Positions 296 through 57,881 of a stretch of DNA of 64,000 bases are shown piece by piece (positions within the stretch are counted from its first letter, which is position 1; each line of letters begins with the position of its first letter). Location of the stretch: the UHGV virus genome UHGV-1353844. One strand, written 5' to 3'. This stretch comes from a virus. The notes below the pieces were generated by a model. That model worked only from the letters and a program-made list of their open reading frames with translations, searched no databases and was not told the DNA's origin. The translations under genes and the position numbers were made by a program.

Positions 296-396
296 TTTAG
301 ATTACTCCATTTAGTTAAGTGAGAATTCTCACATAGATGAAATATATCTTAAATTTTTTAGACCATTAACAACACAATGCTGAAGTTATATCGAAA

Positions 397-4161: not shown

Positions 4162-4218
4162 TTTAATACTCCTTATCGGCTTTCCTCACAACAAAAGAAA
4201 AAGTTGTAAAAAGAAAAA

Positions 4219-4234
4219 GGGAGCCGAAGCTCCC
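4219..4234 (-). terminator. intrinsic terminator (UUCG loop on minus transcript)
   Basis: GGGAGC-cgaa-GCTCCC flanked by A-run; downstream of gene ending at 4248. Confidence 0.6.
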
Positions 4235-4247
4235 TGTTTGTTACAAA

Positions 4248-4931
4248 CTACCAAAGCTTAGAACTAGTGAATGCTGCACTAGAATCTGGAACTTTGCCTC
4301 TTAATTTATCACGCAGAAGTTCAAAGAACATGCGATGATAAGCGTAATATTTTTCCAACCGATTGTATTCAATCAGGTTTTCTAACGCCGGATGAAAGCG
4401 AAGATGTTTGTTAGGACTGGTAAGGGAAAACGGAACGACTTCTTCATTAAGCAAGATAGGATACTTAACACTATCGCCCATTTCAGCATACAACATTTTG
4501 GTGTCGAAAACGAAATAAGCCGTTGGGTGAAAGCCTAACCACGTTGAAGCCTCAACAAAGAAGTCAGTCAATTTACTAGCAATCTGGCTGATCATCTTAT
4601 CGTCTGATTTAAACATCAGGCGCAGGAAAATCTCGCTAATGACTGAACCCGTAAGCAGTTTTTCTTTGTGGATACCTGGCACGACTGCCAGTACCTCATC
4701 GTCGAGTCGACAGACAAGCGTGTACAGGTCGAATACCGGGTAATGGTAAATATCGATCGTTAAACTCGCACGCGGAGTGTAACTTAAGATTTTATCCCCG
4801 TGTATTTCTGTGGCGGGCGGCATAAGCGCAAGCTTCTTGCTAGGCCCACCCTGTTTAACTTCTGCTTCCTTAGTATCAATCGGTTTTTCTACAGTTTCTT
4901 TAACTTCAGTTTTCTTAGTTCTCGGTGCCAT
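4248..4931 (-). CDS. hypothetical protein (227 aa), downstream of early-promoter-like element
   Basis: ORF track; GAGGA RBS; conserved promoter element 4956-5020 upstream; terminator 4219-4234 downstream. Confidence 0.65.
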   Translation of the reverse strand: MAPRTKKTEVKETVEKPIDTKEAEVKQGGPSKKLALMPPATEIHGDKILSYTPRASLTIDIYHYPVFDLYTLVCRLDDEVLAVVPGIHKEKLLTGSVISEIFLRLMFKSDDKMISQIASKLTDFFVEASTWLGFHPTAYFVFDTKMLYAEMGDSVKYPILLNEEVVPFSLTSPNKHLRFHPALENLIEYNRLEKYYAYHRMFFELLRDKLRGKVPDSSAAFTSSKLW

Positions 4932-4955: not shown

Positions 4956-5020
4956 CAAGTCGTAAAGAGATTACGATGTAATCTCACTAAGGTAATATCT
5001 ATCTGAGAAAAAATTAAATA
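4956..5020 (-). promoter_or_regulatory. conserved early-promoter-like element, copy 1
   Basis: ~65-bp block near-identical to 40923-40990; minus-strand core AGATATTAC; palindrome GATTACGATGTAATC; ~27 bp upstream of start at 4931. Confidence 0.55.
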
Positions 5021-5022
5021 AC

Positions 5023-5042
5023 CCCCTACCCGAAGGTAGGGG
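5023..5042 (-). terminator. intrinsic terminator (UUCG loop)
   Basis: CCCCTACC-cgaa-GGTAGGGG; A-rich on plus upstream; downstream of tmk. Confidence 0.6.
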
Positions 5043-5673: not shown

Positions 5674-5784
5674 TATCGTTTTACCTTTACGCACAAAAAT
5701 TTAAACCGATACTTCTTTATTCCATACCGGCGTTCACATAATAGCTATTGGTTGTAATAAATTTTAGGATAAAAAAGAAACCCG

Positions 5785-5804
5785 CCCCTACCGATTGGTA
5801 GGGG
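5785..5804 (-). terminator. intrinsic terminator
   Basis: CCCCTACC-gatt-GGTAGGGG preceded by AAAAAAGAAA. Confidence 0.55.
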
Positions 5805-5811
5805 TAAGGTT

Positions 5812-13181: not shown

Positions 13182-13241
13182 GATAAGTCTCCATGTTCAA
13201 GTCTCACAGTATGATCAAAAATTGTAAAATAAAAAGAAGAA

Positions 13242-13265
13242 AACCTCTACCCGAAGGTAGAGGTT
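13242..13265 (-). terminator. intrinsic terminator (UUCG loop)
   Basis: AACCTCTACC-cgaa-GGTAGAGGTT flanked by A/T runs. Confidence 0.6.
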
Positions 13266-13269
13266 GGTT

Positions 13270-21184: not shown

Positions 21185-21240
21185 TTCCTCATTCCCTCAC
21201 TATAGTGGGCGGCTATAATAAATTGGGGAATAAAAAAGAA

Positions 21241-21264
21241 GGAGGAGAGCCGAAGCTCTCCTTG
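21241..21264 (-). terminator. intrinsic terminator (UUCG loop)
   Basis: GGAGAGC-cgaa-GCTCTCC preceded by AAAAAAGAAGGA. Confidence 0.55.
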
Positions 21265-21272
21265 TGTGGTGA

Positions 21273-21565: not shown

Positions 21566-23176
21566 TTAATAACGAACTGGTGCAGTCACGTCACCTGTGC
21601 TCAGCAGCGAATAAACATGAGACGGGGTCTTAAGTTTAATGAACGCTTCTGGTGCTTTCTGGTTAATGACTTCGTAGATTGAAACAATCGGTTCGAAGCT
21701 GTTACCAAACGATGAGATTTCCACGATATGGCGATCGTTAGCGGATTGATAATCTGCTTGCAGAGAAATCGTGTACGTTACCTGAGACAGTTCAATAGCT
21801 TTATTATCGCAGGTCAGACGAATGTGCAGCTTACGCAGAGAACGCGCGATCAGCAGGAACATTTCACGAAAATAATCCGCAGACTTGCTCACACCATTTT
21901 CACCGATGGTACGACCATACACTGTCTCTTTAAAGTAGGTCATGTCATCCAGGCAGCATTCCAACTGTACGAATTTCGTACCCGGAACGTCTTTACCGTA
22001 AGCAGATGCCACGGAGATGGCGTTGTGAACCAGCACGGTTAATGTTGCAATGAAACGACGAGTAAACGCTGAACATTCGCTACGATACGTTTCATTCTCA
22101 TCAGATTTGGTGAGGAAGTACATTAACAAACGTTGTGCAAGGTCACGCAGTCTGAAGACGTCATTAGAAACACGCTCCATCAGCTTTTCAATATCGTCAA
22201 TATCACGTACGGTATCGAGATCGTCGATAATCTGGCGAACCGAACTATAAAACTCCTGGAGATACACCGCAGAAGTTTCAGTCTGTGCCATCGGATACAG
22301 ACGGTATTCGCTTTCGACTTTCACCATGATACCCGCATCGTCATACGAGCAATATTGTTTGTCGTTATCTTCAACCAGTTCACTAACCTTATCACCCCAG
22401 TCACGATGTTCTGCATACACAGAATTCTTGACGCGTGTGTTAGCTTCTTTCGGCGAAACAACGTTTTGCTGAATCTTTTCTTTCAGCTCGTGATCTAAAT
22501 AGTCTTCCACAATTTCTACCCGCAAAATGTCATGGTGAGGACGGTTAGCACGTTGAATGATATCATCCATCGTTTCCTTATTCATATCCACAGGCTTGCT
22601 TTTGTTCATCACTTCCTGCGGAACAGTCGGCTGAATAATAGCAGGCTGTGTTTGCGTTTGCGGTTGAGTTTGCGGAGTACCACCGAATACCGGAGCGGAT
22701 TGTACAGGTTGCACTGTTACACCGGCCGGAGTATAGCTGGCCATCGGTACAGAAGAACCCTGAATCGGTGCAGTTGGTTGCGCATTCTGCGAATTCTGAA
22801 TACCGAAGTTAACCGGTTCAGTACGCACACCGAATCCACCCTGCCCAGCACGACGTGCTTCTTCTGCAAGCTGATTCGCCAGCACAAACGCTTTCTCTAA
22901 CGCGCTATGAATGTCCGGCTGCAACGGAGTCAGACCTAAACCTAACAGACGGCTATAGAGCGTTGCCTTAAAGGTTTCGATAACCGCAACGTTAGTTTGG
23001 TCACTAGGGCGACGGTTTTGCAGATACCAGTTACCCACAATACACGCTGCATTAACAAACGGATCTTCTTTTATCCCCTTCGCGTTCATCGCGTCGACGA
23101 GATAGTTCAAAAGCTGATCCTGTTTAGCCATAAAAACTTTCAAGATAAATTCACGAGTTTCGCTGTAGCTTGCCAT
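21566..23176 (-). CDS. hypothetical protein (536 aa) with P/Q/T-rich linker
   Basis: ORF track; low-complexity segment TPQTQPQTQTQPAIIQPTVPQ. Confidence 0.6.
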   Translation of the reverse strand: MASYSETREFILKVFMAKQDQLLNYLVDAMNAKGIKEDPFVNAACIVGNWYLQNRRPSDQTNVAVIETFKATLYSRLLGLGLTPLQPDIHSALEKAFVLANQLAEEARRAGQGGFGVRTEPVNFGIQNSQNAQPTAPIQGSSVPMASYTPAGVTVQPVQSAPVFGGTPQTQPQTQTQPAIIQPTVPQEVMNKSKPVDMNKETMDDIIQRANRPHHDILRVEIVEDYLDHELKEKIQQNVVSPKEANTRVKNSVYAEHRDWGDKVSELVEDNDKQYCSYDDAGIMVKVESEYRLYPMAQTETSAVYLQEFYSSVRQIIDDLDTVRDIDDIEKLMERVSNDVFRLRDLAQRLLMYFLTKSDENETYRSECSAFTRRFIATLTVLVHNAISVASAYGKDVPGTKFVQLECCLDDMTYFKETVYGRTIGENGVSKSADYFREMFLLIARSLRKLHIRLTCDNKAIELSQVTYTISLQADYQSANDRHIVEISSFGNSFEPIVSIYEVINQKAPEAFIKLKTPSHVYSLLSTGDVTAPVRY

Positions 23177-23215
23177 TCTTAATTCTCCTAATAGGTCTTA
23201 ATACGTCTTTCGTGG

Positions 23216-24991
23216 TTAACGGCCAATCTTCGCAATATCTTCTTCGGTTGCTTGGATTAACTCGTCAAGTTTTGGATTACGAACCATCACTAACTGACGG
23301 CTAGTTTTCATGTACGGGTTAAGGATACCCCATTTGAACGGGGACGATTTCGGAATGTAATAAACGTTACCGCACTCCAGATGCGATGCAGAAGCGTGTT
23401 TCGTACGGTCATTAAGGTTAACCGTTTTACCGCCTTTGCTGTTACGTTTAGATTCCGTTTCAGTTTGACTAATCGCGTGTGTGGATACTCCTAGTACCAT
23501 GGACTCTGTTGATGCGTTGAAATAACTTACACCGCCGTTACCAGTGATATTACGCAACACCAGACTCGTGACAATTTCTTTATTGAGTGCGCTACGAATC
23601 ATATTCGCGCAGGATTCTGGCGAACGATTCTCCGTTTGTCCCAGATGGAAACGAATAGCCGCTACCGTTGGTGTAAACCCACGGTCACCTAACAGTAAGT
23701 AGTCAGTTACGGTTAAACGTTTTCCGTACATCGACGGAATGTCACCCTGTTTAGTCAAACGGGTACGTACCATCAGTTTCGTTGCATACCAGAAGAAATC
23801 AAACATATCCATGTCGTCTGGAATGTCAGGATCGGTCATCTTCAGTTCTGCACGGAACGTTGAGTTAACGTAGCGATCGCATTCAGTATAGTGTTTCGCC
23901 ATACTGTGCGCTAACTCAATATCGGAAGGTTTCAGTCCTACGATACTTCTTCCCAGAATCTCACGCCAAATCGGAGCAGAGTTCAGGTTAGCAATATCGT
24001 CTTCCATCGCTAACTCGTTAATTGCGGTAAACAGCGGCGGGAGCGGCGTGACGTTACCGTTCTTAATGGATTGTTTACTGCAATAGTAGTGAGCGGCTTT
24101 GAAGAACGCAGCAATTGCGGCCAGCAACAAATGCTCGTTTTGATCCCAACCAACTTTATCCACGTTCGGCAATGCTTCTGCGGGTACGACAACCGCGTAC
24201 ATTATCGAACGGTTATATTTCGATTCACCGGAACTGATTACAACTTTCTCGTTGAGATCGAGTTCTGGGATCTTAAACGATGGATAAATTTCTACGTCAA
24301 CACCAGTATAGCGTTTAATCGCTTCTTTAAATCCGTAACGTCCGAACAACCAATACATTAACGGTTTCTCGTCAGTATCAGGATGTGTTGCGTTCTTCGC
24401 TTTGAACAGGTTTTTGGTTCCTGGTAAGAATAGCTCCTCTTTTTTACCGTTGACTAACACACGGACAGGTTGCTTACAGAATTTCAACGAGGCTTTACGT
24501 TTAAAGTCAAAGTTAACAAATACCCCACCGTGTTCGCGACAGATACCTGGCTGGTGAATAACCGGTGCAACGTGATACGTCGTACCGTAATAGTTCATTA
24601 AACCACCACGACGGATAAAGGGTAAGTTAATCGGTCTTGAGATCGGTCGAGAATCTCCTGGAATACGGAATGTTGACATGACCATATACGCATCAGTATT
24701 CGCAATGGACATCACACCACGACGTCTATCCATTCTGCTGCTCTCAGAACGAGACAGCTTATAGATGAACGTTTCAAACGGTGACATTAACCGTACACCT
24801 AATACAGCCAGCCCTTCAGGAACACGCGGATTATCAACAGGATGATAATCCAGCTCACGTTTCAAGATAATCTGAACACGCTCGTGTATACCGTCTTTGG
24901 CCTGTGTATAACCGACACCTTCCGCAATCGCTCGGTTAAAGGGTACTATTTTGCCATCCTCTTTAAGCTTTCTGATTGCATCTTTAAACAC
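23216..24991 (-). CDS. hypothetical protein (591 aa)
   Basis: ORF track; operon context. Confidence 0.6.
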   Translation of the reverse strand: MFKDAIRKLKEDGKIVPFNRAIAEGVGYTQAKDGIHERVQIILKRELDYHPVDNPRVPEGLAVLGVRLMSPFETFIYKLSRSESSRMDRRRGVMSIANTDAYMVMSTFRIPGDSRPISRPINLPFIRRGGLMNYYGTTYHVAPVIHQPGICREHGGVFVNFDFKRKASLKFCKQPVRVLVNGKKEELFLPGTKNLFKAKNATHPDTDEKPLMYWLFGRYGFKEAIKRYTGVDVEIYPSFKIPELDLNEKVVISSGESKYNRSIMYAVVVPAEALPNVDKVGWDQNEHLLLAAIAAFFKAAHYYCSKQSIKNGNVTPLPPLFTAINELAMEDDIANLNSAPIWREILGRSIVGLKPSDIELAHSMAKHYTECDRYVNSTFRAELKMTDPDIPDDMDMFDFFWYATKLMVRTRLTKQGDIPSMYGKRLTVTDYLLLGDRGFTPTVAAIRFHLGQTENRSPESCANMIRSALNKEIVTSLVLRNITGNGGVSYFNASTESMVLGVSTHAISQTETESKRNSKGGKTVNLNDRTKHASASHLECGNVYYIPKSSPFKWGILNPYMKTSRQLVMVRNPKLDELIQATEEDIAKIGR

Positions 24992-25001
24992 GCCACGCTC
25001 C

Positions 25002-26012
25002 TTATTTTAGCATCCCTATAAATGCGACACCCGCCGCCAGATACGCAGGGACTGATTTAAATAGGTCTGACCCATCTTTACGAATGTAAGAACGAGTCTC
25101 GTAGAATTCTTTTCGTGCCTCTGCCCGAGACTTTGCTTCTAGTTCTTGTTGTTTATACGCTAGAGTCAAACGCTCCTTTTCCAAAGCCAAATTCTGTAGT
25201 TGTTTTTTGTGTTCTAATTCCAGTTTGTCTTTTGCCGAATCCAAACTTTCTAATTTTTCTCTGTATTGACTTTCCAGCTTTTCCTTTATCTCGTGAATAT
25301 CCGGTAACGTTTCTTGCCATCGAAACGCGGTGGCTGTTTCTTTATCTTTAAAAACACGGAACGGTGACAATAAGTCATCGAACTCGAAGTGAATCATCCT
25401 GCTCCCTTCTACTTTGTCTCCACCTCCGATTACCATATACACACCCGGTTCGTAATACCGTGATAGTATCGGTTGTACTTCCATGCGCGTTCCGTAGAAT
25501 CTAATCCAACGATATAGTTCGGGATCGTCGTAACGCTGCACAACAATAACACCTAATGTAAATTCAGTTCTCTCACCTCCTGGTCTTACGCTCGGTGGCG
25601 TACTTTCTAATCGAACTGGTGTAATTGAAAAAGCGAATCCTAGCTGCTTCAATACAACCAAGTCCCCACGTAATAAAGCACCGATATCGTCAACCACGTA
25701 TCGGAGTGTGACCTCTCCTTTCTCCTTTAAATCTGCACAAAATTTAGTGAATTGTTTTTCTGGTAAGACTTCTGCAAAGCCGTTCAGGTTAGCCAGATTT
25801 CCGAACGATTGATACGTTACATAAACAACAACCCCATGCTCATCAGCCGGGCTTTTGGACGGAGTTAAAATAAAGCTACCGCCACTGGTTTCAGTGACGT
25901 AAATTGGCACACCAGTATTATTCTCAAAAGTGATGAGTTTTTGTAGTCCTGACCTTTGATACAACGAACGGTCAGTAATACTGGGTACCACATCAATATC
26001 AAGACGGTTCAT
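25002..26012 (-). CDS. hypothetical protein (336 aa): coiled-coil region plus hydrophobic C-terminus
   Basis: ORF track; coiled-coil KEKLESQYREKLESLD...; C-terminus SVPAYLAAGVAFIGMLK; early-promoter-like element upstream. Confidence 0.6.
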   Translation of the reverse strand: MNRLDIDVVPSITDRSLYQRSGLQKLITFENNTGVPIYVTETSGGSFILTPSKSPADEHGVVVYVTYQSFGNLANLNGFAEVLPEKQFTKFCADLKEKGEVTLRYVVDDIGALLRGDLVVLKQLGFAFSITPVRLESTPPSVRPGGERTEFTLGVIVVQRYDDPELYRWIRFYGTRMEVQPILSRYYEPGVYMVIGGGDKVEGSRMIHFEFDDLLSPFRVFKDKETATAFRWQETLPDIHEIKEKLESQYREKLESLDSAKDKLELEHKKQLQNLALEKERLTLAYKQQELEAKSRAEARKEFYETRSYIRKDGSDLFKSVPAYLAAGVAFIGMLK

Positions 26013-26094
26013 GTAAGGGCCAGATTAAGTTTTAATAATGGTACATATCTTTAGTCTTAAATGTATTTTTTCCATAAAGTCTCCTTTAAACCAA

Positions 26095-26135
26095 CTGACA
26101 GTCTCCCATTGATAATATCTATCCAAAAAATAATA
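26095..26135 (-). promoter_or_regulatory. early-promoter-like element, copy 4 (more divergent)
   Basis: Plus-strand TTGATAATATCTATCCAAAAAATAATAG resembles copies 1-3; upstream of gene 25002..26012. Confidence 0.4.
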
Positions 26136-26156
26136 GAAAGAAAAAAAAATAAAAGG

Positions 26157-26178
26157 TCTAAGCCCCGAAGGGCTTAGA
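26157..26178 (-). terminator. intrinsic terminator after capsid-like gene
   Basis: TCTAAGCCC-cgaa-GGGCTTAGA; A-run upstream on plus. Confidence 0.6.
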
Positions 26179-26194
26179 CACTTTTTATTCGGTA

Positions 26195-28480
26195 TTATTT
26201 ACCAGCTTTGTCTTTACCGTCGCCAGCAACATTACCTGCTACACCACCTTCGGTTTGTTTCTGACCGTTCTGTTCTACAGAAACGTTGTAAGCCAGTTTT
26301 TCTTCAACCAGTTTGGTGATGCCTTTAACCCAAATCAGACCAGTGATCGGGCAGTGGCAGATATGCGCGTTACGCGGCTGTACAGCCAGTTCTTTAGAAG
26401 TAGAACCGTTACGCTGGATGTTGATGTTGGTAACCATGATCGGAGACCAGAAGTGGTTACCCCAGTTCAGTACGCAGTAGGAACCATCGTCCGCAGTCGG
26501 AACTTTCAGGAACCATTGCAGACGACGAGTCCAGGAATCGTCAGCTGCGTTGTAGATACGCCAGCGGTCATCGTTGGTGGTAACGACTTCGTATTCATAA
26601 CGGTCGCCCAGCAGACGTTGGTCGCCCTGAACCAGCAGCAGCATAGATGCAGTCGGTTCGTCAGTTGCGATAATAACTTTCGGCAGAATGTCCGGATCAG
26701 CGGTCAGCAGGCGCAGTGCAGGAATGAAACGAGAATCCTGGATAGCCTGAGTTACCTGGCTACCGATACGCTGCAACAGACCCTGACGAGCGTTGATCAG
26801 CGCTTCTTTGGTATCCAGAGACTGAACAACTTCATCGACTTTGTAGTCAGACTCTTTGAACCACGGAGCAACCCAGTGACGGCCCAGACCACGGATGGCC
26901 GGTTTGTCCCACGGAGTGATCATCGCAGCGGCTGCGTTACGTACTGCTTCGGTGTAAGACAGCGTCTGAGTAATCGCCAGCTGTTCGTTACGGATGTTCA
27001 CCGCAGAGATCAGGTCGTCCAGACGTTCAGTGTCGTCGTATTCAACACCAACTGGAGACTTGGTCAGAATCGGAGAACCGTATTGCAGTTTGTAGTTTTC
27101 CTGTTCCCAAATTGGGTCAAGCAGCAGACCCTGGGTACGACGGTTTTCGTTGGTACGAGTACCATCGAAGCGCCAGCCCATCAGTTCGAGCTTCAGGCCG
27201 TCCAGGATAACTTTACCGGTGCCAGACTTGGTATCAACTTTGTTACCAGTTGCATCGTACAGACCTTCGATTTCCAGTTTGTGGCCGGAAATGTCTACTT
27301 TACCACCGAACTGGCCGCTGGTGAACAGGGACATGGTGATGGTGATAACGTAGCGCAGGGTGTAGGAGTTCTGACCCAGTGCTTGCAGAGCCGGAATAGC
27401 TGCACCAGTCCAGTCGGTGGTTTTCGCATTCAGAGAGAACGCGGTACGACGGAATTGCAGAACCAGTTCACGGCCGTCACCTTCAGCAGGACGCTGGAAG
27501 GTTGCGAACTGCATGTCACGAACGTGCAGTTTGATGAATTTACCCGCTCTCGCTTCTTCGGTCGGTTTACGTACAGAAATCAGCAGGCTGCCCAGAGCAC
27601 AACCCGGTGCGATTTCATCAGTTTCATCGTAACCTTCCTGAACGATACCCGGATGCGCAGACAGCTGGAACAGGTTCAGCGTGTCGTTTGCAAAGCTCAG
27701 GTAGTTAGTCGGATACGGAGGTACACGACCCAGGCGAACGGTTTCGTTCGGAACCAGTTCTTCGCTTACGAAGTATTCCTGGTTTTCACCGGTTTCCATT
27801 ACGTAAGGAACGATGTTGATCGCTTCGTCCTGGAGAACGGTGTGGTCAGTCAGTGCGTTGTGCAGCGGACGACGATGGTCTTCAACCACGTCTTTGCTCA
27901 GCAGCGCGTTCATGATACCGCGAGAAACGGTAGTCACTTTAGTACGTACGGTAATACCAACATCGTTGGTGTCAACGGTAATGGTCGGGAACAGTGTTTC
28001 AGCAAACTTGGACTGAGTTTCCAGAGCACGTACGTTCAGGGTCCAGGTCAGGCCCAGGTTTTTGTCGTAGTCTTTGTTGCTATAGTATTCCTGAGCAACA
28101 ACCATGCGCTCACGACCCCAGTCACCACCTTGCGCACCAGGGATACCAATATCCAGGTTATACTTGCTGTGGAATTCCGGCTTAGCGTATTCCTGGGCAA
28201 CACGTTCTTGCAGGTCTTTACCGTGGTTAGCTGCGCCCAGAATCATTGCGGAGGCGACAGTCGCAGCATGAGACATTTTCTTGCCGCCAAAAGCGTTGGC
28301 ATAGTGCTGTGATGCTTCGTCACGCAGAGCGCCAAATACTTTTGCGTTGCTACGTACGGACTCGCCTGCAACAATCGTATTCCACATTTCGCTGGCGGTG
28401 TTGTTGCCGATGACGTTTTGGGCCAGACTAGTACCGGCTTCTACGAGTTTCTCTAAATTAGAGATTCGGGTATCTTTCAT
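26195..28480 (-). CDS. putative major capsid protein (761 aa, phiKZ-like size class)
   Basis: Strong host-optimal codon bias (CTG, CGT, GGT, ACC, GAA); size typical of jumbo-phage capsid proteins; N-terminal AGE|S and AQE|Y motifs; terminator 26157-26178. Product is inferred, not searched. Confidence 0.5.
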   Translation of the reverse strand: MKDTRISNLEKLVEAGTSLAQNVIGNNTASEMWNTIVAGESVRSNAKVFGALRDEASQHYANAFGGKKMSHAATVASAMILGAANHGKDLQERVAQEYAKPEFHSKYNLDIGIPGAQGGDWGRERMVVAQEYYSNKDYDKNLGLTWTLNVRALETQSKFAETLFPTITVDTNDVGITVRTKVTTVSRGIMNALLSKDVVEDHRRPLHNALTDHTVLQDEAINIVPYVMETGENQEYFVSEELVPNETVRLGRVPPYPTNYLSFANDTLNLFQLSAHPGIVQEGYDETDEIAPGCALGSLLISVRKPTEEARAGKFIKLHVRDMQFATFQRPAEGDGRELVLQFRRTAFSLNAKTTDWTGAAIPALQALGQNSYTLRYVITITMSLFTSGQFGGKVDISGHKLEIEGLYDATGNKVDTKSGTGKVILDGLKLELMGWRFDGTRTNENRRTQGLLLDPIWEQENYKLQYGSPILTKSPVGVEYDDTERLDDLISAVNIRNEQLAITQTLSYTEAVRNAAAAMITPWDKPAIRGLGRHWVAPWFKESDYKVDEVVQSLDTKEALINARQGLLQRIGSQVTQAIQDSRFIPALRLLTADPDILPKVIIATDEPTASMLLLVQGDQRLLGDRYEYEVVTTNDDRWRIYNAADDSWTRRLQWFLKVPTADDGSYCVLNWGNHFWSPIMVTNINIQRNGSTSKELAVQPRNAHICHCPITGLIWVKGITKLVEEKLAYNVSVEQNGQKQTEGGVAGNVAGDGKDKAGK

Positions 28481-30593: not shown

Positions 30594-30597
30594 GTCT

Positions 30598-30615
30598 GGG
30601 GAGCTTCGGCTCCCC
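30598..30615 (+). other. UUCG stem-loop immediately after stop of plus gene (no U-tract)
   Basis: GGGGAGC-ttcg-GCTCCCC starting 5 nt after stop; likely 3' stability element. Confidence 0.4.
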
Positions 30616-30699
30616 CTACGACCCCTTATGCGTCCCGAAAAGCAAAAAAAAACAAGACATCTAATATTTATGAACGAAAGTCAACTACTGAACTAAGTA

Positions 30700-30725
30700 G
30701 GGGGTGGTAGCACACCCCCTTTTAT
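30700..30725 (+). terminator. intrinsic terminator (GGGGTG...CACCCC family)
   Basis: Hairpin followed by TTTTATT; same stem as hairpins at 31031 and 31367. Confidence 0.55.
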
Positions 30726-30728
30726 TAG

Positions 30729-30902
30729 TTAGTAGCGTTCACTCCTTTTTTCAGTGATTATCTGTGTGAAACGGTTGGTTGATGGTTTTAATCGTTTATT
30801 CGCACCGAGTTGACTATACTCGTAGATACGTTGCTGTAAATTGGTTTTTGCTGCATATTGTTCTGCAAGCATTTTGTCAGTAAAGTAGTAACCATTGTTC
30901 AT
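30729..30902 (-). CDS. small hypothetical protein (57 aa)
   Basis: Track ORF shortened to M14, where AAAGAGGG lies ~10 nt upstream; sits between structured RNA modules. Confidence 0.4.
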   Translation of the reverse strand: MNNGYYFTDKMLAEQYAAKTNLQQRIYEYSQLGANKRLKPSTNRFTQIITEKRSERY

Positions 30903-30937
30903 GGTATAAGCCCTCTTTGTAGGGTGATTAAAGAAAT

Positions 30938-31055
30938 CCATTACGTTTCCGTAATGGTGCTGTAAAAGGTACGCTGCACCAACAGCGTACCTTGCTTTAA
31001 CTTCTCTTTGGAAAAGTTAAAGCGTAAAAAGGGGTGTGACAGCACCCCTTTTTAT
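30938..31055. other. four-hairpin structured intergenic module 1
   Basis: Consecutive hairpins at 30938-30957, 30968-30991, 30995-31022 and 31031-31048 followed by T-run; homologous to module 2. Confidence 0.55.
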
Positions 31056-31060
31056 TACAC

Positions 31061-31246
31061 CTACGACCACCAACTCGGCAGGTTACTGTACGAAGCTTTA
31101 CGCTTCACAGTCCCACAGCTGGGCTGTGGTCCAGGGGCAGTAATCAGACCACGCATGGCGTAGTCGTTCATGTGTGCCTTGAACCTACTTTCCCTAAACT
31201 GTGTTAATTTCGTTTGTTTTAAAACTTCCTTACGTAAATCAGGCAT
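31061..31246 (-). CDS. small hypothetical protein (61 aa)
   Basis: ORF track; GAGGT 8 nt upstream; flanked by four-hairpin modules. Confidence 0.35.
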   Translation of the reverse strand: MPDLRKEVLKQTKLTQFRESRFKAHMNDYAMRGLITAPGPQPSCGTVKRKASYSNLPSWWS

Positions 31247-31276
31247 TTTGATACCTCACTTAGTGTCTTAATGTTA

Positions 31277-31395
31277 GGCTAACAGTTCGTTAGCCGCCTA
31301 AGTAGGGACTGCCTATACAGTCCCTACTGCTTTATCTTCTCTTTCGAAAAGATAAAGCTATGATAAGGGGTGTGTCACCACCCCTTGTTTTTTTA
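31277..31395. other. four-hairpin structured intergenic module 2
   Basis: Hairpins at 31277-31295, 31302-31327, 31330-31357 and 31367-31384 followed by T-run; hairpin 3 differs from module 1 by compensatory changes (aac/gtt vs atc/gat). Confidence 0.55.
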
Positions 31396-31554
31396 TCAGT
31401 TACTTCTCCTTTCAACTATCAACTGGGTGTTTCTTGGATAAGCAACTTTGGGCTGAGTTAACGTTGGTTGCGCTATTTCACTAACCCTACGTTGAAATTC
31501 GAGCTGTTTTACGGACAACTCGTTTAACCTTTGAAACAACTGTTCATGTTTCAT
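31396..31554 (-). CDS. small hypothetical protein (52 aa), not in ORF track
   Basis: Hand-translated MKHEQLFQRLNELSVKQLEFQRRVSEIAQPTLTQPKVAYPRNTQLIVERRSN; GGAG ~9 nt upstream. Confidence 0.3.
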   Translation of the reverse strand: MKHEQLFQRLNELSVKQLEFQRRVSEIAQPTLTQPKVAYPRNTQLIVERRSN

Positions 31555-31598
31555 GAACTTTTCTCCTATGTTGAAGTTGCGAAAATAAATAAAGTGTA

Positions 31599-31624
31599 CC
31601 CCTAATCCCGAAAAGGATTAGGGG
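31599..31624 (-). terminator. intrinsic terminator
   Basis: CCCCTAATCC-cgaaaa-GGATTAGGGG; A-rich upstream on plus. Confidence 0.6.
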
Positions 31625-31630
31625 TTGCTT

Positions 31631-32500: not shown

Positions 32501-32644
32501 TTAACCACGACCAGTGCACTGCGCAACGGAATTACCGTTGTCGATGCAAGTGTCGTAGCCTTTATCGATGTCCAGGTACAGGCAACCCAGAACAACAGCG
32601 ATAACAACAGCGAAGATAGCTTTTTTGTGTTTTACAGAAATCAT
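32501..32644 (-). CDS. small lipoprotein (47 aa precursor, lipobox VLG|C), not in ORF track
   Basis: Hand-translated MISVKHKKAIFAVVIAVVLGCLYLDIDKGYDTCIDNGNSVAQCTGRG; AGGAG 7 nt upstream; early-promoter-like element upstream; UUCG terminator 32478-32493. Confidence 0.55.
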   Translation of the reverse strand: MISVKHKKAIFAVVIAVVLGCLYLDIDKGYDTCIDNGNSVAQCTGRG

Positions 32645-32671: not shown

Positions 32672-32735
32672 AAATGAGTATTACGTAATTCTCTCACCTA
32701 AGTAATATATATCTGAAAATATTTTAATTAAAACA
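32672..32735 (-). promoter_or_regulatory. conserved early-promoter-like element, copy 3
   Basis: Divergent copy (ATTACGTAAT palindrome, core TATATATTAC) upstream of lipoprotein gene. Confidence 0.5.
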
Positions 32736-32849
32736 CCCTCTAAAACGCGCTGTATCGCATTCTGACAGCCTTTTATTTTTTTAAACACCATTAATCGTCT
32801 TAAGGTGTAAAACAGCGTCTAAGACGCATTCACGAGTAAATAAAAGGAC

Positions 32850-32877
32850 ATCCCGTTACCCACAAAGGTAACGGGAT
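32850..32877 (-). terminator. intrinsic terminator
   Basis: ATCCCGTTACC-cacaaa-GGTAACGGGAT preceded by A-rich tract. Confidence 0.55.
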
Positions 32878-32881
32878 AATT

Positions 32882-38434: not shown

Positions 38435-38525
38435 TGGCTTGTTCCTTCGTTATAGTCATATCACAGGCGCGAAATGAAAAAAAAAAATAAAAGGGAACCG
38501 AAGTCCCCTTTTATGTTTATCTGTG

Positions 38526-40231: not shown

Positions 40232-40253
40232 AAAGCCCTCCGTAGAGGGCTTT
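40232..40253 (-). terminator. intrinsic terminator (UACG loop)
   Basis: AAAGCCCTC-cgta-GAGGGCTTT; A-run upstream. Confidence 0.55.
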
Positions 40254-40257
40254 GTAT

Positions 40258-40899
40258 TTAAATGGATGCAGCGAATTGTTTTACAGACGCAGCCATCGAA
40301 CCATTAAACAGGACGAATGTACACTCCTCTTCATGGTCCTTACTATAAATCAATGGTAGGATTTTAAAGCTATCCATAGGTCCTTCACTTATTTCTAACA
40401 CACGTGGAATAGAGCGCATCTCTTCGAAAAGTTCAACAATCGTTTCCATAACCGCTTCTGCCGAATCCTTCGCGATTTCAAACAGTAAATCTTTCTGTTT
40501 CGGCGCGATTAAATGGAAGAAACATACGGCGACGAATCTTCCGTTATCTTTCTCACACAACGCAACATGGGCATCAGTAAACGCATGATATTTTTCACCA
40601 CTGAATTCGCGCATACCGACATCACCGTCTGTACGTGGATTAGCCATCTGTTTTGAGAAAGCTTCTAATTTTTCGCTGTCGATTTCTTTAAAGACGAACT
40701 CACGAGAGTTAACGGTTAGAGATTCTTTCTCTAACCCTTCAAATTTCTTGTCGTAAGACAAACGTAGCCAAGTAGAAATAGCAACCACTTCTACAGGATT
40801 TAAATCCAGCTCTTTGGCATTTGGAGCAACTAAGGTCGCGCCTTTGCTTTCTAAAGTTACAACACTATCAACAAAATCAGTTAAATTAATGCGGCTCAT
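40258..40899 (-). CDS. hypothetical protein (~213 aa), downstream of early-promoter-like element
   Basis: Track ORF shortened to M20 (MSRINLTDF...) with AGGAG RBS; conserved element 40923-40990 upstream. Confidence 0.6.
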   Translation of the reverse strand: MSRINLTDFVDSVVTLESKGATLVAPNAKELDLNPVEVVAISTWLRLSYDKKFEGLEKESLTVNSREFVFKEIDSEKLEAFSKQMANPRTDGDVGMREFSGEKYHAFTDAHVALCEKDNGRFVAVCFFHLIAPKQKDLLFEIAKDSAEAVMETIVELFEEMRSIPRVLEISEGPMDSFKILPLIYSKDHEEECTFVLFNGSMAASVKQFAASI

Positions 40900-40922: not shown

Positions 40923-40990
40923 ACAAGTCGTAAAAAAGATTACGATGTAATCTCACTAAGGTAATATATATCTGAAATTATTTTTAATCG
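40923..40990 (-). promoter_or_regulatory. conserved early-promoter-like element, copy 2
   Basis: Near-identical to copy 1; minus-strand core TATATATTAC; same palindrome; upstream of gene starting at 40899. Confidence 0.55.
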
Positions 40991-41009
40991 AAAAAAAAAG
41001 AAAAAGAAA

Positions 41010-41030
41010 TCACCCCGCGATGCGGGGTGA
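41010..41030 (-). terminator. intrinsic terminator after head-protein paralog 1
   Basis: TCACCCCGC-gat-GCGGGGTGA preceded by long A-run. Confidence 0.55.
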
Positions 41031-41052
41031 TTCTACGCTAAATAATCAACGA

Positions 41053-42315
41053 TTATTTAGACTTTTCGTACGCTGCGATACCGGCGCTGATATAACCGTT
41101 AACACCGCTAACCAGGTTTTTCTGAGTAGAAGCAACAACCTTCTCGCACAGGGATACTGCGCCGCGAATGCTGTTAACATAGCGACGTGCAACACGTACG
41201 CCTTCAGTCAGTTCTGGTTTTTCATCGATCTTAACGTTATCGATTTCTTTCAGCAGTTTCTCGATAGACTGAGCGAACTTCTCACGAGCCTGCTCGGTCT
41301 TACGGTATTCGAGAACGTTCTTCTCAATCTGTTTGCCCAGATCGGTGAAGAAGCTGTTCAGTTTAGCCAGTTCGCTTACAGACGGAGTTTTCACGCTGGT
41401 TTCAACAGAGTTTTCTGCTTCAACGTGAGTGAAGCTAAAGCCACCATCTTCATCGAAGTGGGTCTGCATAACCATGTTGCCCAGACGGAATTCTTTGTCG
41501 CCGTCTTCTTTAGAAAGCGCAGCAAATTCAGCACGCAGTTGCTCAGCCTGAACACCATTAGCTTTGGATACGCCTGCAACCAGAGCGGTACCAGAAGCCA
41601 GCAGTGTCGGAACGTGTTTGCTGTAGAAAGAAGAAACACGGCTCATCGCGTCTTTCAGGCGCGGTACATCGTTACCAACGAATTTACCGTCAACTGACAG
41701 GCACTTGATGAAACCACCAGAGATTTCATCTTTCTTCTGTTTGCCCAGCTTACGAATAGCTTCGTCGTATTTCTTCGCACGACCCTGGATAGATTTACCC
41801 TGGTTGTGGAATTTCAGCCAACGATCTTTCAGTTTGCGGCCTTGCTCTTTCAGCCATTCCCAGAAACGTTTCAGGAAGGCTTTAATGTCATCCCACAGGG
41901 ATTCACGAGCAACCTGACGACGGTTACGAGCGCCGTAGGATTCGTGAGCGACGGAGGAACGGTGTTCGAAGTTCCAGCGAGAACGGATAGATTCCTGAGC
42001 AACATCCAGCGCTTTAGCAGCGTCGTCCGGCATGTCTTCTTCAGCATCCATCGGGTCTTCGCCATCTTCAGCACCTTCGCCGTCAGCGGAAGCCTGAGCT
42101 TCGTCCAGAACGTCCAGCTGCGCATCGGTTTCGTCGCCGTCTTCCGCCAGCAGCTCTGCGTCAGCGTCCAGCGCTTCGATCGGTTTAGTGTCGTGCTCGA
42201 TATCAGCCAGAGTACCTTCGATAGACTCTGCTGGCAGCTCAATACCATCTGGAACGACAGTAGAGTTCGCTTCCATTGACTCACGAGCAATTTTGTTTTT
42301 GTAGAAATTCGCCAT
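41053..42315 (-). CDS. abundant virion (head) protein candidate, paralog 1 (420 aa)
   Basis: Strong optimal-codon bias; acidic N-terminal region with repeated A-x-E|S motifs (ARES, AQES, AHES); conserved termini MANFxK... / ...AGIAAYEKSK shared with paralog 2. Confidence 0.6.
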   Translation of the reverse strand: MANFYKNKIARESMEANSTVVPDGIELPAESIEGTLADIEHDTKPIEALDADAELLAEDGDETDAQLDVLDEAQASADGEGAEDGEDPMDAEEDMPDDAAKALDVAQESIRSRWNFEHRSSVAHESYGARNRRQVARESLWDDIKAFLKRFWEWLKEQGRKLKDRWLKFHNQGKSIQGRAKKYDEAIRKLGKQKKDEISGGFIKCLSVDGKFVGNDVPRLKDAMSRVSSFYSKHVPTLLASGTALVAGVSKANGVQAEQLRAEFAALSKEDGDKEFRLGNMVMQTHFDEDGGFSFTHVEAENSVETSVKTPSVSELAKLNSFFTDLGKQIEKNVLEYRKTEQAREKFAQSIEKLLKEIDNVKIDEKPELTEGVRVARRYVNSIRGAVSLCEKVVASTQKNLVSGVNGYISAGIAAYEKSK

Positions 42316-42395: not shown

Positions 42396-43667
42396 TTACT
42401 TAGATTTTTCGTAAGCACCGATACCAGCACCCAGGTAACCGTTCAAACCGCTAATTACGGTGTTAGCAACATAACTAACGGCACGGTTCAGGGTCTGGTA
42501 GTTCTTAACAGACTGGTCAGCAGCTTGGCGTGCATTACGCAGACCATCCCACTTGCTTTCGTCTTTTTCGCTGTTCAGCGCGTTAGCAGCTTTCTCAGCG
42601 GCCTGTTGCAGTTTTGCAATCTCTGCATCGTAAGCACGGAAGTCTTTCAGTACAGCTTCGAAGCCTTTACCGATAGATTCCAGAGAAGAAGCAGCGCCAG
42701 CCATTTCAGAAACAGACGGAGTTTTCACGTCTTTATCGTCAGAGGCATCGCCAGTGCTCATGAATGCAACAGCGGTAAATTTGTGACCGCCAGCCAGTTC
42801 TTTAGTACCGGACTGAACGTATGCGTTACCCGGCAGAGCCAGAAGTTTGGACGCATCGCCGTTTTCAAAGTTCGGCAGGTTATGCAGTTTAGAAGCTGCT
42901 TTACCGAACAGTTCTACCGGCTGATCGCCACGCATTGCTTTGAATGCTTCGTCATCGCCTTTGGTTACAGCAGTAACAGCTTCACCAGCTTGTTTTTCCA
43001 GTGCGCTGATAGCACCTTTAGCTTTACCAGAGGTTACTTCTTTCGCGATAGCGATAGAGCCAGCTGCATCGAATTTACCTTCAATGGACAGCTTAGTAAT
43101 GAAACCACCGGAGATGGTATCATTTTTCTGTTTGCCCAGCTTGCGCAGCATTTCCTGATATTTCTTCGCACGTTTCTGTGCGGTCTTACCGACGTTGAAA
43201 TATTTCAGTTTCAGGTCTTTGATCTTCGCAATCACTTCTTTACAGAACTGAATGAAACGCTCGTAAAGACCTTTCAGGGTTTCTTTCCAGCCTTCCTGCG
43301 CAGCAGCAGTCATGCCACGGCCACGGCGATAGGATTCGCGAGCCAGTTTGGTGCGTTCCAGGTTCCAACGACGTGCGATGGATTCCTGAGCCACTTCTTG
43401 CAGGGCAACCGCTTCTTCCGGCATTTCTTCACCGTTAGCAACGGCTTCTTCCGCCTGATCGATAGCGTCTTCAGTACGCTCAGTATCGGCGGCCAGAGTT
43501 TCACCGTCGGTTTCCAGCTGTTCGAGCTGACCGTCGATAGAGGCTACGTCTGCAAGCTGGACGTCCAGGTTCTCTTCTGCCGGTTCAACGTTGCTGATAC
43601 CGTCGATTACTTCATCGGCCGCTTCCATTGATTCACGAGCGGCGCGAGTTTTTGCGAAATTTGCCAT
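42396..43667 (-). CDS. abundant virion (head) protein candidate, paralog 2 (423 aa)
   Basis: Same architecture and termini as paralog 1; AAGGAAA RBS; palindrome GGTTATATAACC upstream. Confidence 0.6.
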   Translation of the reverse strand: MANFAKTRAARESMEAADEVIDGISNVEPAEENLDVQLADVASIDGQLEQLETDGETLAADTERTEDAIDQAEEAVANGEEMPEEAVALQEVAQESIARRWNLERTKLARESYRRGRGMTAAAQEGWKETLKGLYERFIQFCKEVIAKIKDLKLKYFNVGKTAQKRAKKYQEMLRKLGKQKNDTISGGFITKLSIEGKFDAAGSIAIAKEVTSGKAKGAISALEKQAGEAVTAVTKGDDEAFKAMRGDQPVELFGKAASKLHNLPNFENGDASKLLALPGNAYVQSGTKELAGGHKFTAVAFMSTGDASDDKDVKTPSVSEMAGAASSLESIGKGFEAVLKDFRAYDAEIAKLQQAAEKAANALNSEKDESKWDGLRNARQAADQSVKNYQTLNRAVSYVANTVISGLNGYLGAGIGAYEKSK

Positions 43668-50642: not shown

Positions 50643-50656
50643 AAAAATAAAAAGCT

Positions 50657-50684
50657 ACCCTACTCCCGAAAAGGAGTAGGGTAC
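50657..50684. terminator. bidirectional terminator (twin of 56016-56042)
   Basis: TACCCTACTCC-cgaaaa-GGAGTAGGGTA flanked by A-run and T-run; between convergent genes. Confidence 0.6.
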
Positions 50685-50693
50685 TTCTTTTTT

Positions 50694-56009: not shown

Positions 56010-56015
56010 GAAAAA

Positions 56016-56042
56016 ATAAAAGCTACCCTACTCCTTTCGGGA
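56016..56042. terminator. bidirectional terminator (twin of 50657-50684, loop inverted)
   Basis: Same 24-nt upstream flank and stem, loop tttcg instead of cgaaaa. Confidence 0.6.
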
Positions 56043-56057
56043 GTAGGGTAATGCTTA

Positions 56058-56579: not shown

Positions 56580-57881
56580 TTAGGTGATATGGATCAACGG
56601 ATCGTATTCTTGAACGACGGTTTCTTTACCGTGCATTGCGGCCATTGCCACGGACATAACGTTAGAGAACGCTGACGAAATATCCGCCGCGATAGCGCGA
56701 GGTTCTTCACCTTTCGCTTCGGAGGAGCACGCAGTGCAGCAGTCGATGTGGCCGTATTGACATAAGATGGGTCGGCGTAGACGCACAACTTTCCCTAGCT
56801 GACTATTCAAAAACTCTTCCGTCAGGGAGGTTAACTTCCCATTAACCATCGCGTTCATGCCAACGTAACGTTTTACGTTGTCTTTTGTGATAACCACAGG
56901 GTGCGTGAGTTTCGTCCCACAGTCACCTGCAACGATTCGGTGGTTCTGGAAAATCATCTGGATGATACGTACCTGTTCCCCACCTTTCGCGGTTTCTGCA
57001 CCACGCGAGAACGAACCTTCACGAATAGAGTTAAACTTCGCGACCAGATTATCCATTCCCGCTTTATCGACTTCCACCAATGCGTTAGGAATTAACGTAT
57101 AGTTACCCCCTTCCTGGAAAGACGATTCAATCCCGTACATCAGCATCAACTTACGACGACGCATTCGCGATTTCGGTGAGTTATAGAACTCGATAGATTG
57201 GTCACCCGACAACCACTGTTTATCCAGTTCGTCCAGTGCTTTTTCTATCTTAACAATCACTGCTGGGTCGTCTAACTCGTCCTTATGCTTTAACAGCAAC
57301 GCATCACGTATTTTATACGCATCAGGATGCACTGTAAGGCTTCTAAGTGTACCTGTTGGTGCAATACCAGCGGTTAGTGGTGCAAGCTCGTGTAAGCCGC
57401 TTACAAAGCGTTCTATCATGCTCGGACGAATAGCACCTTCGTTCTCAGGTTCATCGGTCTCGTGATCCAAACAACGGCGGTGCATCTCTTTTCGATACTC
57501 TAACGGGTTTTGTGAAATACCCATATACGGCAAGCGTGTACCAAACGCATACCAGATAACAACCCAGTTAAAGATATAACGTCCTACGGTAGTAGGAATC
57601 GGTCCTTCTAATCCTGGGTAGTCATCGACTTTCAACTCAAACTGTTCTTCAGGAATAAACAGTTCTTGGTCTTTTACACCATCAGTAATGGGCTGCCAAA
57701 CGCCTTTCCCATCTTCTACCGCGTAGTAGTGCGGCATTCCGTCAATATACGTAATATCGAACGCTTCGGGTTCTTCACGATTCGACGGGAACACTGACAT
57801 GTTGAATATTGCAATACGCCACACTAAACGACGCCAGGCTTCGGCTTTACACGCCGCCACCAGAAACTCAAATCTCGTCAT
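56580..57881 (-). CDS. hypothetical protein (433 aa)
   Basis: ORF track. Confidence 0.6.
   Translation of the reverse strand: MTRFEFLVAACKAEAWRRLVWRIAIFNMSVFPSNREEPEAFDITYIDGMPHYYAVEDGKGVWQPITDGVKDQELFIPEEQFELKVDDYPGLEGPIPTTVGRYIFNWVVIWYAFGTRLPYMGISQNPLEYRKEMHRRCLDHETDEPENEGAIRPSMIERFVSGLHELAPLTAGIAPTGTLRSLTVHPDAYKIRDALLLKHKDELDDPAVIVKIEKALDELDKQWLSGDQSIEFYNSPKSRMRRRKLMLMYGIESSFQEGGNYTLIPNALVEVDKAGMDNLVAKFNSIREGSFSRGAETAKGGEQVRIIQMIFQNHRIVAGDCGTKLTHPVVITKDNVKRYVGMNAMVNGKLTSLTEEFLNSQLGKVVRLRRPILCQYGHIDCCTACSSEAKGEEPRAIAADISSAFSNVMSVAMAAMHGKETVVQEYDPLIHIT

Follow-up and report, generated by a model that had tools for sequence, protein, structure and literature searches.

Here, we analyzed a 64,000-nucleotide (nt) stretch of the virus genome UHGV-1353844 (the window) and found an intergenic element, present in five copies on the minus strand, that very probably acts as an early promoter for a virion RNA polymerase (RNAP). 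The promoter assignment is made because the element matches the early-promoter motif of phiKZ-like phages and because of its genomic context, namely, the operon of a gp123 homologue behind one copy and promoters at equivalent positions in SPN3US and phiKZ. As a whole, we consider it reasonably probable that these elements are virion-RNAP early promoters which lead into a stabilizing 5' hairpin and which, together with the leader, offer a patch of homology for the swapping of genes.

Repeated element and its match to virion-RNAP early promoters

In the sequence-only reading of the window, four blocks of ~65 bp had been reported. All four were recovered on the minus strand, and they could be aligned over ~90 nt. 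The blocks share a 22-nt core, GATAKATATTAYNNNNGKGAGA, which occurs exactly at 4982-5003, 26102-26123, 32692-32713, and 40951-40972 (all minus strand), and a fifth core site with 2 mismatches was found at 327-348. In dinucleotide shuffles, the core was matched 0.26 times on average, and five matches were reached in 0 of 100 shuffles. The shared layout of the core is CAGATAKATATTAY-N4-GKGAGA, which can also be written as GATAKATATTAY-N4-GKGAGA. When a weight matrix derived from 61 copies in related phages was applied, exactly five sites were detected in the window, at a shuffled maximum of 0.9 bits, and the same five were obtained when the matrix was limited to -42..-7, leaving out GKGAGA. The extended motif alone was informative: the bare octamer TATATTAC was not enriched by itself in the window (3 found vs 1.8 expected), nor was an 11-mer around it with one mismatch. 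In a scan with a covariance model comprising the promoter plus a 7-bp stem, copies 1, 2, and 3 were matched and copy 5 was missed. The five sites, four of them strong and one degenerate, are as follows.

4986..5027, minus strand: copy 1, early-type promoter from -42 to -1 with the core CAGATAGATATTACCTTAGT (exact); 51.2 bits; covariance-model match at 4961-5009, 48 bits; predicted +1, G at 4985
40955..40996, minus strand: copy 2, early-type promoter, best match in the window; 63.8 bits; covariance model 58 bits; upstream terminator at 41007-41033; predicted +1 at 40954
32696..32737, minus strand: copy 3, early-type promoter; 61.2 bits; covariance model 41 bits; predicted +1 at 32695
26106..26147, minus strand: copy 4, early-type promoter; 37.4 bits; adjoins the major-capsid terminator at 26156-26179; predicted +1 at 26105
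331..372, minus strand: copy 5, degenerate early-type promoter with GATATATTTCAT replacing GATATATATTAC; 2 mismatches; 21.2 and 11.4 bits with two matrices; predicted +1 at 330

All five sites are intergenic and lie on the coding strand of the adjacent genes. From 5' to 3', the unit consists of the GC-rich terminator hairpin of the upstream gene with its T-run, an A/T tract, the core, a leader of 30 to 55 nt, a Shine-Dalgarno sequence, and an ATG, the terminators being located 20 to 50 nt upstream of the promoters. Over -42..+5, the weight-matrix alignment gave the clade consensus ATTaaAAATnaTTTCAGATATATATTACCTAgGTGAGAg.

The phage was placed from its proteins. The 761-aa product of 26195-28480 (minus strand) is a phiKZ-type major capsid protein with 78 to 80% identity to those of Erwinia phage phiEaH2 and Salmonella phage SPN3US. 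The window is collinear with 50-99 kb of SPN3US in the opposite orientation, and IMG/VR contigs related to it show 80 to 98% identity. Megablast of 5 kb against GenBank phages gave no match, the DNA being too diverged, and it was the protein search that placed the clade. Because of the capsid protein identity and the homologues of phiKZ gp80 and gp123 listed below, the window is assigned, on protein comparison, to an SPN3US/phiEaH2-like chimallivirus, that is, a phiKZ-like jumbo phage.

56580..57881, minus strand: homologue of phiKZ gp80, a virion-RNAP subunit; tblastn against phiKZ 75037-76323, 26.5% identity, 434 aa, E = 4e-40
23216-24991, minus strand: homologue of phiKZ gp123, a non-virion RNAP subunit; PDB 7OGP chain E (PHIKZ123), E = 1.8e-17; phrog_2943 "polymerase"; also found by tblastn against phiKZ
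21566..26075, minus strand: operon behind copy 4, with a 16-codon upstream open reading frame (uORF) at 26025-26075, a gp122-like gene at 25002-26012, the gp123 homologue, and a 536-aa gene

In phiKZ, gp80 is annotated as RNA polymerase beta subunit / structural head protein. Its homologue is the sole subunit of a virion-packaged multisubunit RNAP within the window, with the packaging itself putative, and is expected to be part of the enzyme that reads these promoters. Copy 4 precedes the gene for the gp123 homologue, and a promoter is found at the equivalent position in SPN3US (72,505) and in phiKZ (120,657, between gp120 and gp121).

The clade consensus is a near base-for-base match to the published early-promoter consensus, including TTTCA and the A/T tracts. 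For phage N1M2, the consensus is TBYAWWWWWTTTCARRYAKATATTATYWAAGTGWA, in which the portion WWWWWTTTCARRYAKATATTATYWAAGTGWA represents the TTTCA and A/T region at -20/-30; the other consensus sequences are ...TTTYARRYAKATATTATYWWADTG for OBP, ...TATATTACDWHDGTG for 201phi2-1, and TATATTAC for phiKZ (PMC7058600). The early-promoter motif is centered at about -10 of the early transcripts made by the virion RNAP, and the injected enzyme expresses, among others, the non-virion RNAP subunits, which are early genes in phiKZ (PMC7598289). As stated in reviews and transcriptome papers, such a motif is present in every RNAP-encoding jumbo phage. Like the early promoters of phiKZ, 201phi2-1, OBP, and N1M2, the window elements have a KATATTAY core below upstream TTTCA and A/T tracts and a downstream GTG that sets a purine 7 nt after the core, and they lie between genes, after terminators and in front of a non-virion-RNAP subunit gene and small uncharacterized genes. 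Unlike those promoters, the window clade has a fixed GKGAGA initiation region, and about three-quarters of its copies run into a hairpin at the predicted +1. The earlier proposal of phiKZ-like virion-RNAP early promoters is thus supported by the consensus match, the gp80 and gp123 homologues, and the context of copy 4, and a comparison with the published motifs of N1M2, OBP, 201phi2-1, and phiKZ returned the same motif. By analogy, we infer that expression driven by the elements is early. The promoter class is already known for phiKZ-like phages, and its presence in one more uncultured relative is ordinary. The analysis adds a 47-nt early-promoter model for the SPN3US/Erwinia-phage clade, with which the early regulon could be marked in such genomes.

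The transcription start was predicted from the better-studied relatives. In phiKZ, 24 sites have the motif and its A/T context; at every one of them, a purine (21 G, 3 A) stands 7 nt after TATATTAC, with a T directly in front of it. The 201phi2-1 consensus ends in ...GTG, and strong conservation at -2 is reported in the 201phi2-1 transcriptome paper. Given this conserved T-purine step and the 201phi2-1 pattern, +1 in the window copies is most likely the first G of GAGA, 7 nt after TATATTAC, with an accuracy of ~2 nt; the offset was based on statements in published text and on the invariant step at the 24 phiKZ sites.

Predicted hairpin and gene differences at the promoter-leader units

The palindromes noted earlier were present as described: copies 1 and 2 have GAGATTAC-ATC-GTAATCTC(T), and copy 3 has ATTACGTAAT. 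The 9-nt ACTGTCAGT alone is present in copy 4, and copy 5 carries the 14-nt perfect palindrome GTGAGAATTCTCAC (319-332), which overlaps GTGAGA and lies upstream of an 89-aa gene (26-295). The folds predicted for copies 1 to 3, with the minimum free energy (MFE), are listed below.

4967..4985, minus strand: copy 1 leader hairpin, GAGAUUAC-AUC-GUAAUCUC, from the predicted +1; MFE -8.2 kcal/mol, z = -3.83
40936..40954, minus strand: copy 2 leader hairpin, GAGAUUAC-AUC-GUAAUCUU, closing pair G.U; MFE -5.5 kcal/mol, z = -3.09
32676-32695, minus strand: copy 3 weak palindrome; hairpin of -1.5 kcal/mol

A scan of IMG/VR with the 22-nt core gave 111 loci. The clade set, drawn from SPN3US-like jumbo contigs with SPN3US and phiEaH2 among them, comprised 61 non-redundant copies, and 28 matches in unrelated contigs, mostly within genes, were used as chance controls. 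For each, the 30 nt from the predicted +1 were folded, with shuffles that kept GAGA. Of the 61 jumbo copies, 58 paired from nt 0-2 of the predicted (unmapped) +1; the mean MFE was -5.6 kcal/mol and the mean z was -2.25, compared with -1.4 kcal/mol and -0.07 for the chance controls. A fold of -4 kcal/mol or below that started at nt 0-2 was obtained for 45/61 copies and for 1/28 controls (Fisher p = 1.4e-10), and the single control that folded is a jumbo-phage fragment.

The stems vary in sequence while the pairing is kept. Among the clade copies, 23 distinct 5' arms were counted, the loops range from 3 to 11 nt, and stem positions +5 to +8 are occupied by TA, GC, CG, AT, and GU pairs across copies; the base of the stem, GAGA/UCUC, is constant. 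With the covariance model, 66 sites were recovered, and 91.7% of the cells in the model alignment were paired vs 80.1% in shuffles, with changes on both sides in 44 vs 17 cells. The covariation score was 0.292 vs 0.128 in shuffles (0/500 reached 0.292), and slid registers gave at most 0.068. In the orthologues of copy 2, the stem is kept, and variation is confined to the closing base and to the loop, which differs at each of its three positions (AUC, ACA, GCU). In the SPN3US orthologue of copy 3 (65,432), the predicted start reads GAUAGA...UCUAUC, such that pairing is maintained despite the altered GAGA. Judged by these compensatory changes, the pairing appears to be under selection. The sense strand was more stable than the antisense strand in 49 vs 11 cases, and G.U pairs occur in the sense strand (e.g., AGAUUGC/GUAAUCU); both would favor RNA as the folded molecule.

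The genes behind copies 1, 2, and 3 form single-gene units (terminator, promoter, leader, gene, terminator), which are listed here together with the remnant of a further promoter.

4248..4931, minus strand: single gene behind copy 1, 227 aa; terminators at 5023-5042 upstream and 4218-4235 downstream
40258..40899, minus strand: single gene behind copy 2, 213 aa; followed by a terminator at 40232-40253
32501-32644, minus strand: gene behind copy 3, 47 aa, phrog_8574
5750..5779, minus strand: deletion scar of a sixth promoter, of which the A/T upstream half CTAAAATTTATTACA alone is left; repeat family D17; from the comparison of 780-1660 in relative L005 with window 5695-5811

The 5' untranslated region (UTR) of copy 1 extends to the ATG at 4931. 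No function was obtained from Pfam or PHROGs for the genes behind copies 1 and 2. The two copies are near-identical from about -25 to +37, and the proteins downstream are unrelated, which rules out that they are the leaders of paralogous genes. Near-identity to +37 in front of unrelated genes suggests exchange between copies 1 and 2. Copy 2 is located after the internal-head-protein genes, as in SPN3US (56,313), and a dihydrofolate reductase cluster lies downstream, before which the terminator at 40232-40253 closes the copy-2 cassette.

When the window was compared with contigs of at least 90% identity, four of five large differences lay directly behind a promoter-leader unit. Behind the copy-2 leader, an unrelated 58-aa gene replaces the 213-aa gene in one relative (L001), and in another (L080), the stretch is replaced by ~620 bp for which no match to the window could be detected at the nucleotide level. 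In relatives, an extra helix-turn-helix (HTH) gene stands between the copy-1 leader and the 227-aa gene, and the deletion in the window lies at the microhomology ATCATGGC. At 5695-5811, the upstream half of the promoter stands alone in the window, and relative L005 has a full promoter and a ~230-aa gene. The 11.5 kb around copy 4 are collinear with relatives. The one large difference not behind an early promoter, of 568 bp (30732-31299), was seen in L064, a relative at 95 to 99% identity that has unrelated sequence there; the surrounding 30594-31630 is a gap of ~1 kb without long open reading frames (ORFs), between a helicase-like gene and the next minus-strand gene.

Proposed role and alternative explanations

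In the proposed mechanism, a multisubunit RNA polymerase, carried inside the virion and injected along with the DNA, would read the elements. Placed after the terminator of the preceding gene, each would comprise ATTAAAAATAATTTCA as the A/T-rich -35/-20 region, GATAKATATTAY as the -10-like core, and N4-GKGAGA as the initiation region. With a start at the first G of GAGA, the transcript of most clade copies, copies 1 and 2 included, would open with a hairpin of 6 to 9 bp whose first paired base is at +1 to +3. The first 19 to 21 nt of most early transcripts would therefore fold back, leaving the 5' end base-paired. Such a 5'-terminal stem-loop would hide the end from RppH and RNase E and yield longer-lived early mRNAs, and, at a distance of 15 to 25 nt from the ribosome-binding site (RBS), it would not block translation. 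The repeated terminator-promoter-leader unit would, in addition, provide a stretch of homology through which related phages acquire, lose, or trade small early genes.

The role of the hairpin as a 5'-terminal mRNA stabilizer is held tentatively, at slightly under an even chance, by analogy with known leaders. T7 late leaders start with GGGAGA and fold, which provides a phage precedent, and the window clade resembles them in its purine-rich G(G/U)GAGA-type start. As with the stabilizing stem-loops of enterobacteria and their phages (ompA, papA, T7 phi10), the hairpin would lie within 0-2 nt of the predicted 5' end and be followed by an unstructured spacer and an RBS; unlike them, the window-clade stems are AU-rich and weaker, and the 5' end is a predicted one. 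Stabilization of Escherichia coli mRNAs by 5'-terminal stem-loops goes back to work on ompA and papA (Emory et al. 1992; Bouvet & Belasco 1992), as cited in PMC3997798; in enterobacteria, these structures block 5'-end-dependent decay via RppH and RNase E. Early transcripts of the clade would, unlike those of phiKZ, open with a selected 5' hairpin, which bears on mRNA survival before the phage nucleus is formed. No published description was found of a fixed GKGAGA start with a selected +1 hairpin, nor of its association with gene swapping.

For gene exchange, the closest parallel is provided by the promoter-early stem-loops (PeSLs) of T4-like phages, composite terminator/promoter cassettes connected with modular gene shuffling (PMC2839356, PMC4122927). 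In both systems, an intergenic terminator stem-loop and an early promoter are repeated at the borders of insertions, deletions, and replacements between close relatives. The promoters of PeSLs are of the host sigma-70 type, whereas the window elements are of the virion-RNAP type, have a second hairpin in the leader, and occur in an unrelated phage family. Thus, the elements work like PeSLs without belonging to the PeSL family. Promoter-leader units as swap sites of early accessory genes would aid the reading of variable regions in jumbo phages, and the unit offers engineering a candidate for a compact expression cassette that would not need the host polymerase.

Several observations weigh against the combined reading. 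Of the window hairpins, just two beat their shuffles, those of the mutually paralogous copies 1 and 2 (z = -3.8 and -3.1); those of copies 3 to 5 do not, and copy 4 and its orthologues have no convincing hairpin. The hairpins are rich in AU and of modest stability (-5 to -8 kcal/mol). Covariation was scored on an alignment fitted to the structure, such that its counts lean towards structure; the excess of stable sense strands is partly due to the terminal G.U pair; and internal mismatches were G.U vs A.C in 4 vs 1 cases (p = 0.375), a separation of RNA from DNA that is not significant. No transcript map was found for any SPN3US-like phage, and the predicted +1 may be a few bases off or elsewhere. 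The loci in the indel comparison were fetched via promoter matches, which biases the enrichment of differences behind the units. Finally, phiKZ early promoters have no hairpin tendency (24 sites, mean z = -0.5). Since those sites lack hairpins, this class of polymerase does not need the hairpin in general; the hairpin was rejected as a general trait of chimallivirus early promoters and appears, across the copies compared, to be a trait of the SPN3US/Erwinia-phage clade rather than of the promoter class.

The hairpin might instead be part of the promoter or of initiation, either as single-stranded DNA in the open complex, as in N4, or as nascent RNA that aids promoter escape and hybrid release. 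We regard this as unlikely, even though the hairpin is conserved in structure and free in sequence, always abuts the conserved GKGAGA, and is confined to one clade, as expected for a feature co-evolved with a polymerase, and even though pairing in RNA and in DNA is not clearly separated. Homology with phiKZ and 201phi2-1 makes the conserved AT-rich core the -10 element and places the hairpin at +1 to +20. Copy 4, which is kept from phiKZ to the window phage in front of the RNAP-subunit operon, has no hairpin, and the sense G.U pairs (in L037, L057, and L103) would turn into A.C mismatches in the template strand. The likeness to N4 extends to a virion-injected polymerase, early genes, and a small promoter-associated hairpin. 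However, the N4 enzyme is a single-subunit polymerase that recognizes a DNA hairpin with specific bases, and the hairpins of N4 virion-RNAP promoters sit upstream of +1. Here, the polymerase is multisubunit and beta/beta'-like, recognition most likely occurs via the AT-rich -10 core, and the hairpin is downstream, in the transcript. An upstream N4-type hairpin with a 5-7-bp stem, a 3-nt loop, and conserved bases was not found; the loops are 3-11 nt long, and the inner stem and loop are unconserved. A broader proposal is likewise improbable, in which virion-RNAP transcripts of the SPN3US/phiEaH2 clade must carry the +1 hairpin as a co-evolved tag rather than as a passive stabilizer, for promoter escape or for the handling of early mRNAs made in the injected-genome (EPI) vesicle ahead of the phage nucleus, and in which the unit is an exchange module for early accessory genes of chimalliviruses. 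It is quite improbable that the hairpin and the U-rich tract UCUUUUAC that often comes after it form a regulatory site in the leader, such as a pause or attenuator site or one bound by a phage RNA-binding protein for early shut-off or routing. The constant GAGA/UCUC stem base, the T-rich stretch or YTTWAC that commonly comes after it, and the abundant short 5'UTR-derived RNAs from premature termination documented in phiKZ and 201phi2-1 would fit such a site. Yet the loops share neither sequence nor length, the AU-rich stems are far weaker than the real terminators of the phage (0 passed a terminator scan), and a search of the whole window against Rfam 15 gave 0 matches at the gathering score.

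The remaining alternatives concern the DNA itself. The sequence-only reading had left open whether the palindrome is an operator or an RNA structure, and these two suggestions fared differently. A double-stranded DNA operator for a dimeric repressor of the early regulon, to which the identical inverted repeat of 15-19 bp beside the promoter in copies 1 and 2 and the HTH protein encoded directly behind copy 1 in relatives might point, is hardly tenable. Its half-sites differ across the clade (ATTAC, ATTGG, GTTAA, GTAC, TGAG, and others among the 23 arms), the spacing varies from 3 to 11 nt, and copy 4 has no palindrome. Complementarity alone is conserved; because pairing is kept with free sequence and free spacing, a common protein operator is excluded, and a single-stranded, presumably RNA, structure is indicated. 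The operator was rejected on these grounds. That the blocks are host sigma-70 promoters, or recently duplicated DNA without function, is very unlikely. A TATATT hexamer does lie within the core, and copies 1 and 2 are near-identical over ~90 nt, as after recent duplication or gene conversion. However, no sigma-70-like -35/-10 pair was detected at the elements, for which reason the sigma-70 assignment was rejected, and the C of TATATTAC and GKGAGA are conserved outside any sigma-70 reading. In addition, the element is conserved across phages of Salmonella, Erwinia, Klebsiella, and Pseudomonas, and infection by phiKZ proceeds without need of the host RNAP (PMC7598289). The compensatory changes in the stem argue against neutral duplication.

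Neighboring genes and other intergenic elements

Between copy 4 and the gp122-like gene, the 16-codon ORF at 26025-26075 (minus strand) encodes the peptide MEKIHLRLKICTIIKT behind a strong RBS. The peptide is kept with amino acid changes in relatives (MEKIQFKLKICVIIK in L066 and L091) and may represent either a leader peptide or a small protein. Between its capsid and gp122-like genes, SPN3US (L112) has two tandem early-type promoters, at 72,505 and 72,703, and the window has one promoter and the small ORF. Upstream of copy 3, 32738-32881 (minus strand) comprises ~145 nt of non-coding sequence with the hairpin GCGTCTTAGACGC and the motif GCGCGTTTTAGAGGGTG. Motifs of the type CGTTTTAGAGGG recur just upstream of promoters in SPN3US-like contigs (L015, L030, L060, L066, and L093). 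Upstream of copy 2, the tandem paralogous internal head protein genes (phrog_2497) at 41053-42315 and 42396-43667 (minus strand) share ~71% nucleotide identity in stretches (repeat families D1, D9, and D11).

Repeat family D17 occurs at 5750-5779 and 21211-21240 (minus strand) and corresponds to the A/T upstream half of the early promoter, the TATATTAC core being absent. In the copy at 21185-21272, a GC-rich stretch stands at the expected -10 position and is followed by TATAGTGAGGGA; this copy could be a dead promoter or belong to another promoter class. The same intergenic region and three others that follow terminators (13182-13269, 4162-4247, and 38435-38525, minus strand) carry TGTGAG or TATG ~25-30 nt before the RBS, without an AT-rich core. 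As TATG is the late consensus of phiKZ, these sites are candidate promoters of the non-virion RNAP (middle or late). Copy 5 of the early-type promoter also includes TATG, the late-promoter motif of phiKZ.

Near-identical intrinsic terminators of the family CCCCTACC-TTCG-GGTAGGGG were found at 5023-5042, 5785-5805, and 13244-13264. A bidirectional family, GCTACCCTACTCC...GGAGTAGGGTAGC, is located between convergent genes at 50643-50693, 56010-56057, and 31583-31623. Both terminator families are similar to conserved terminator motifs that have been reported in phiKZ and 201phi2-1.

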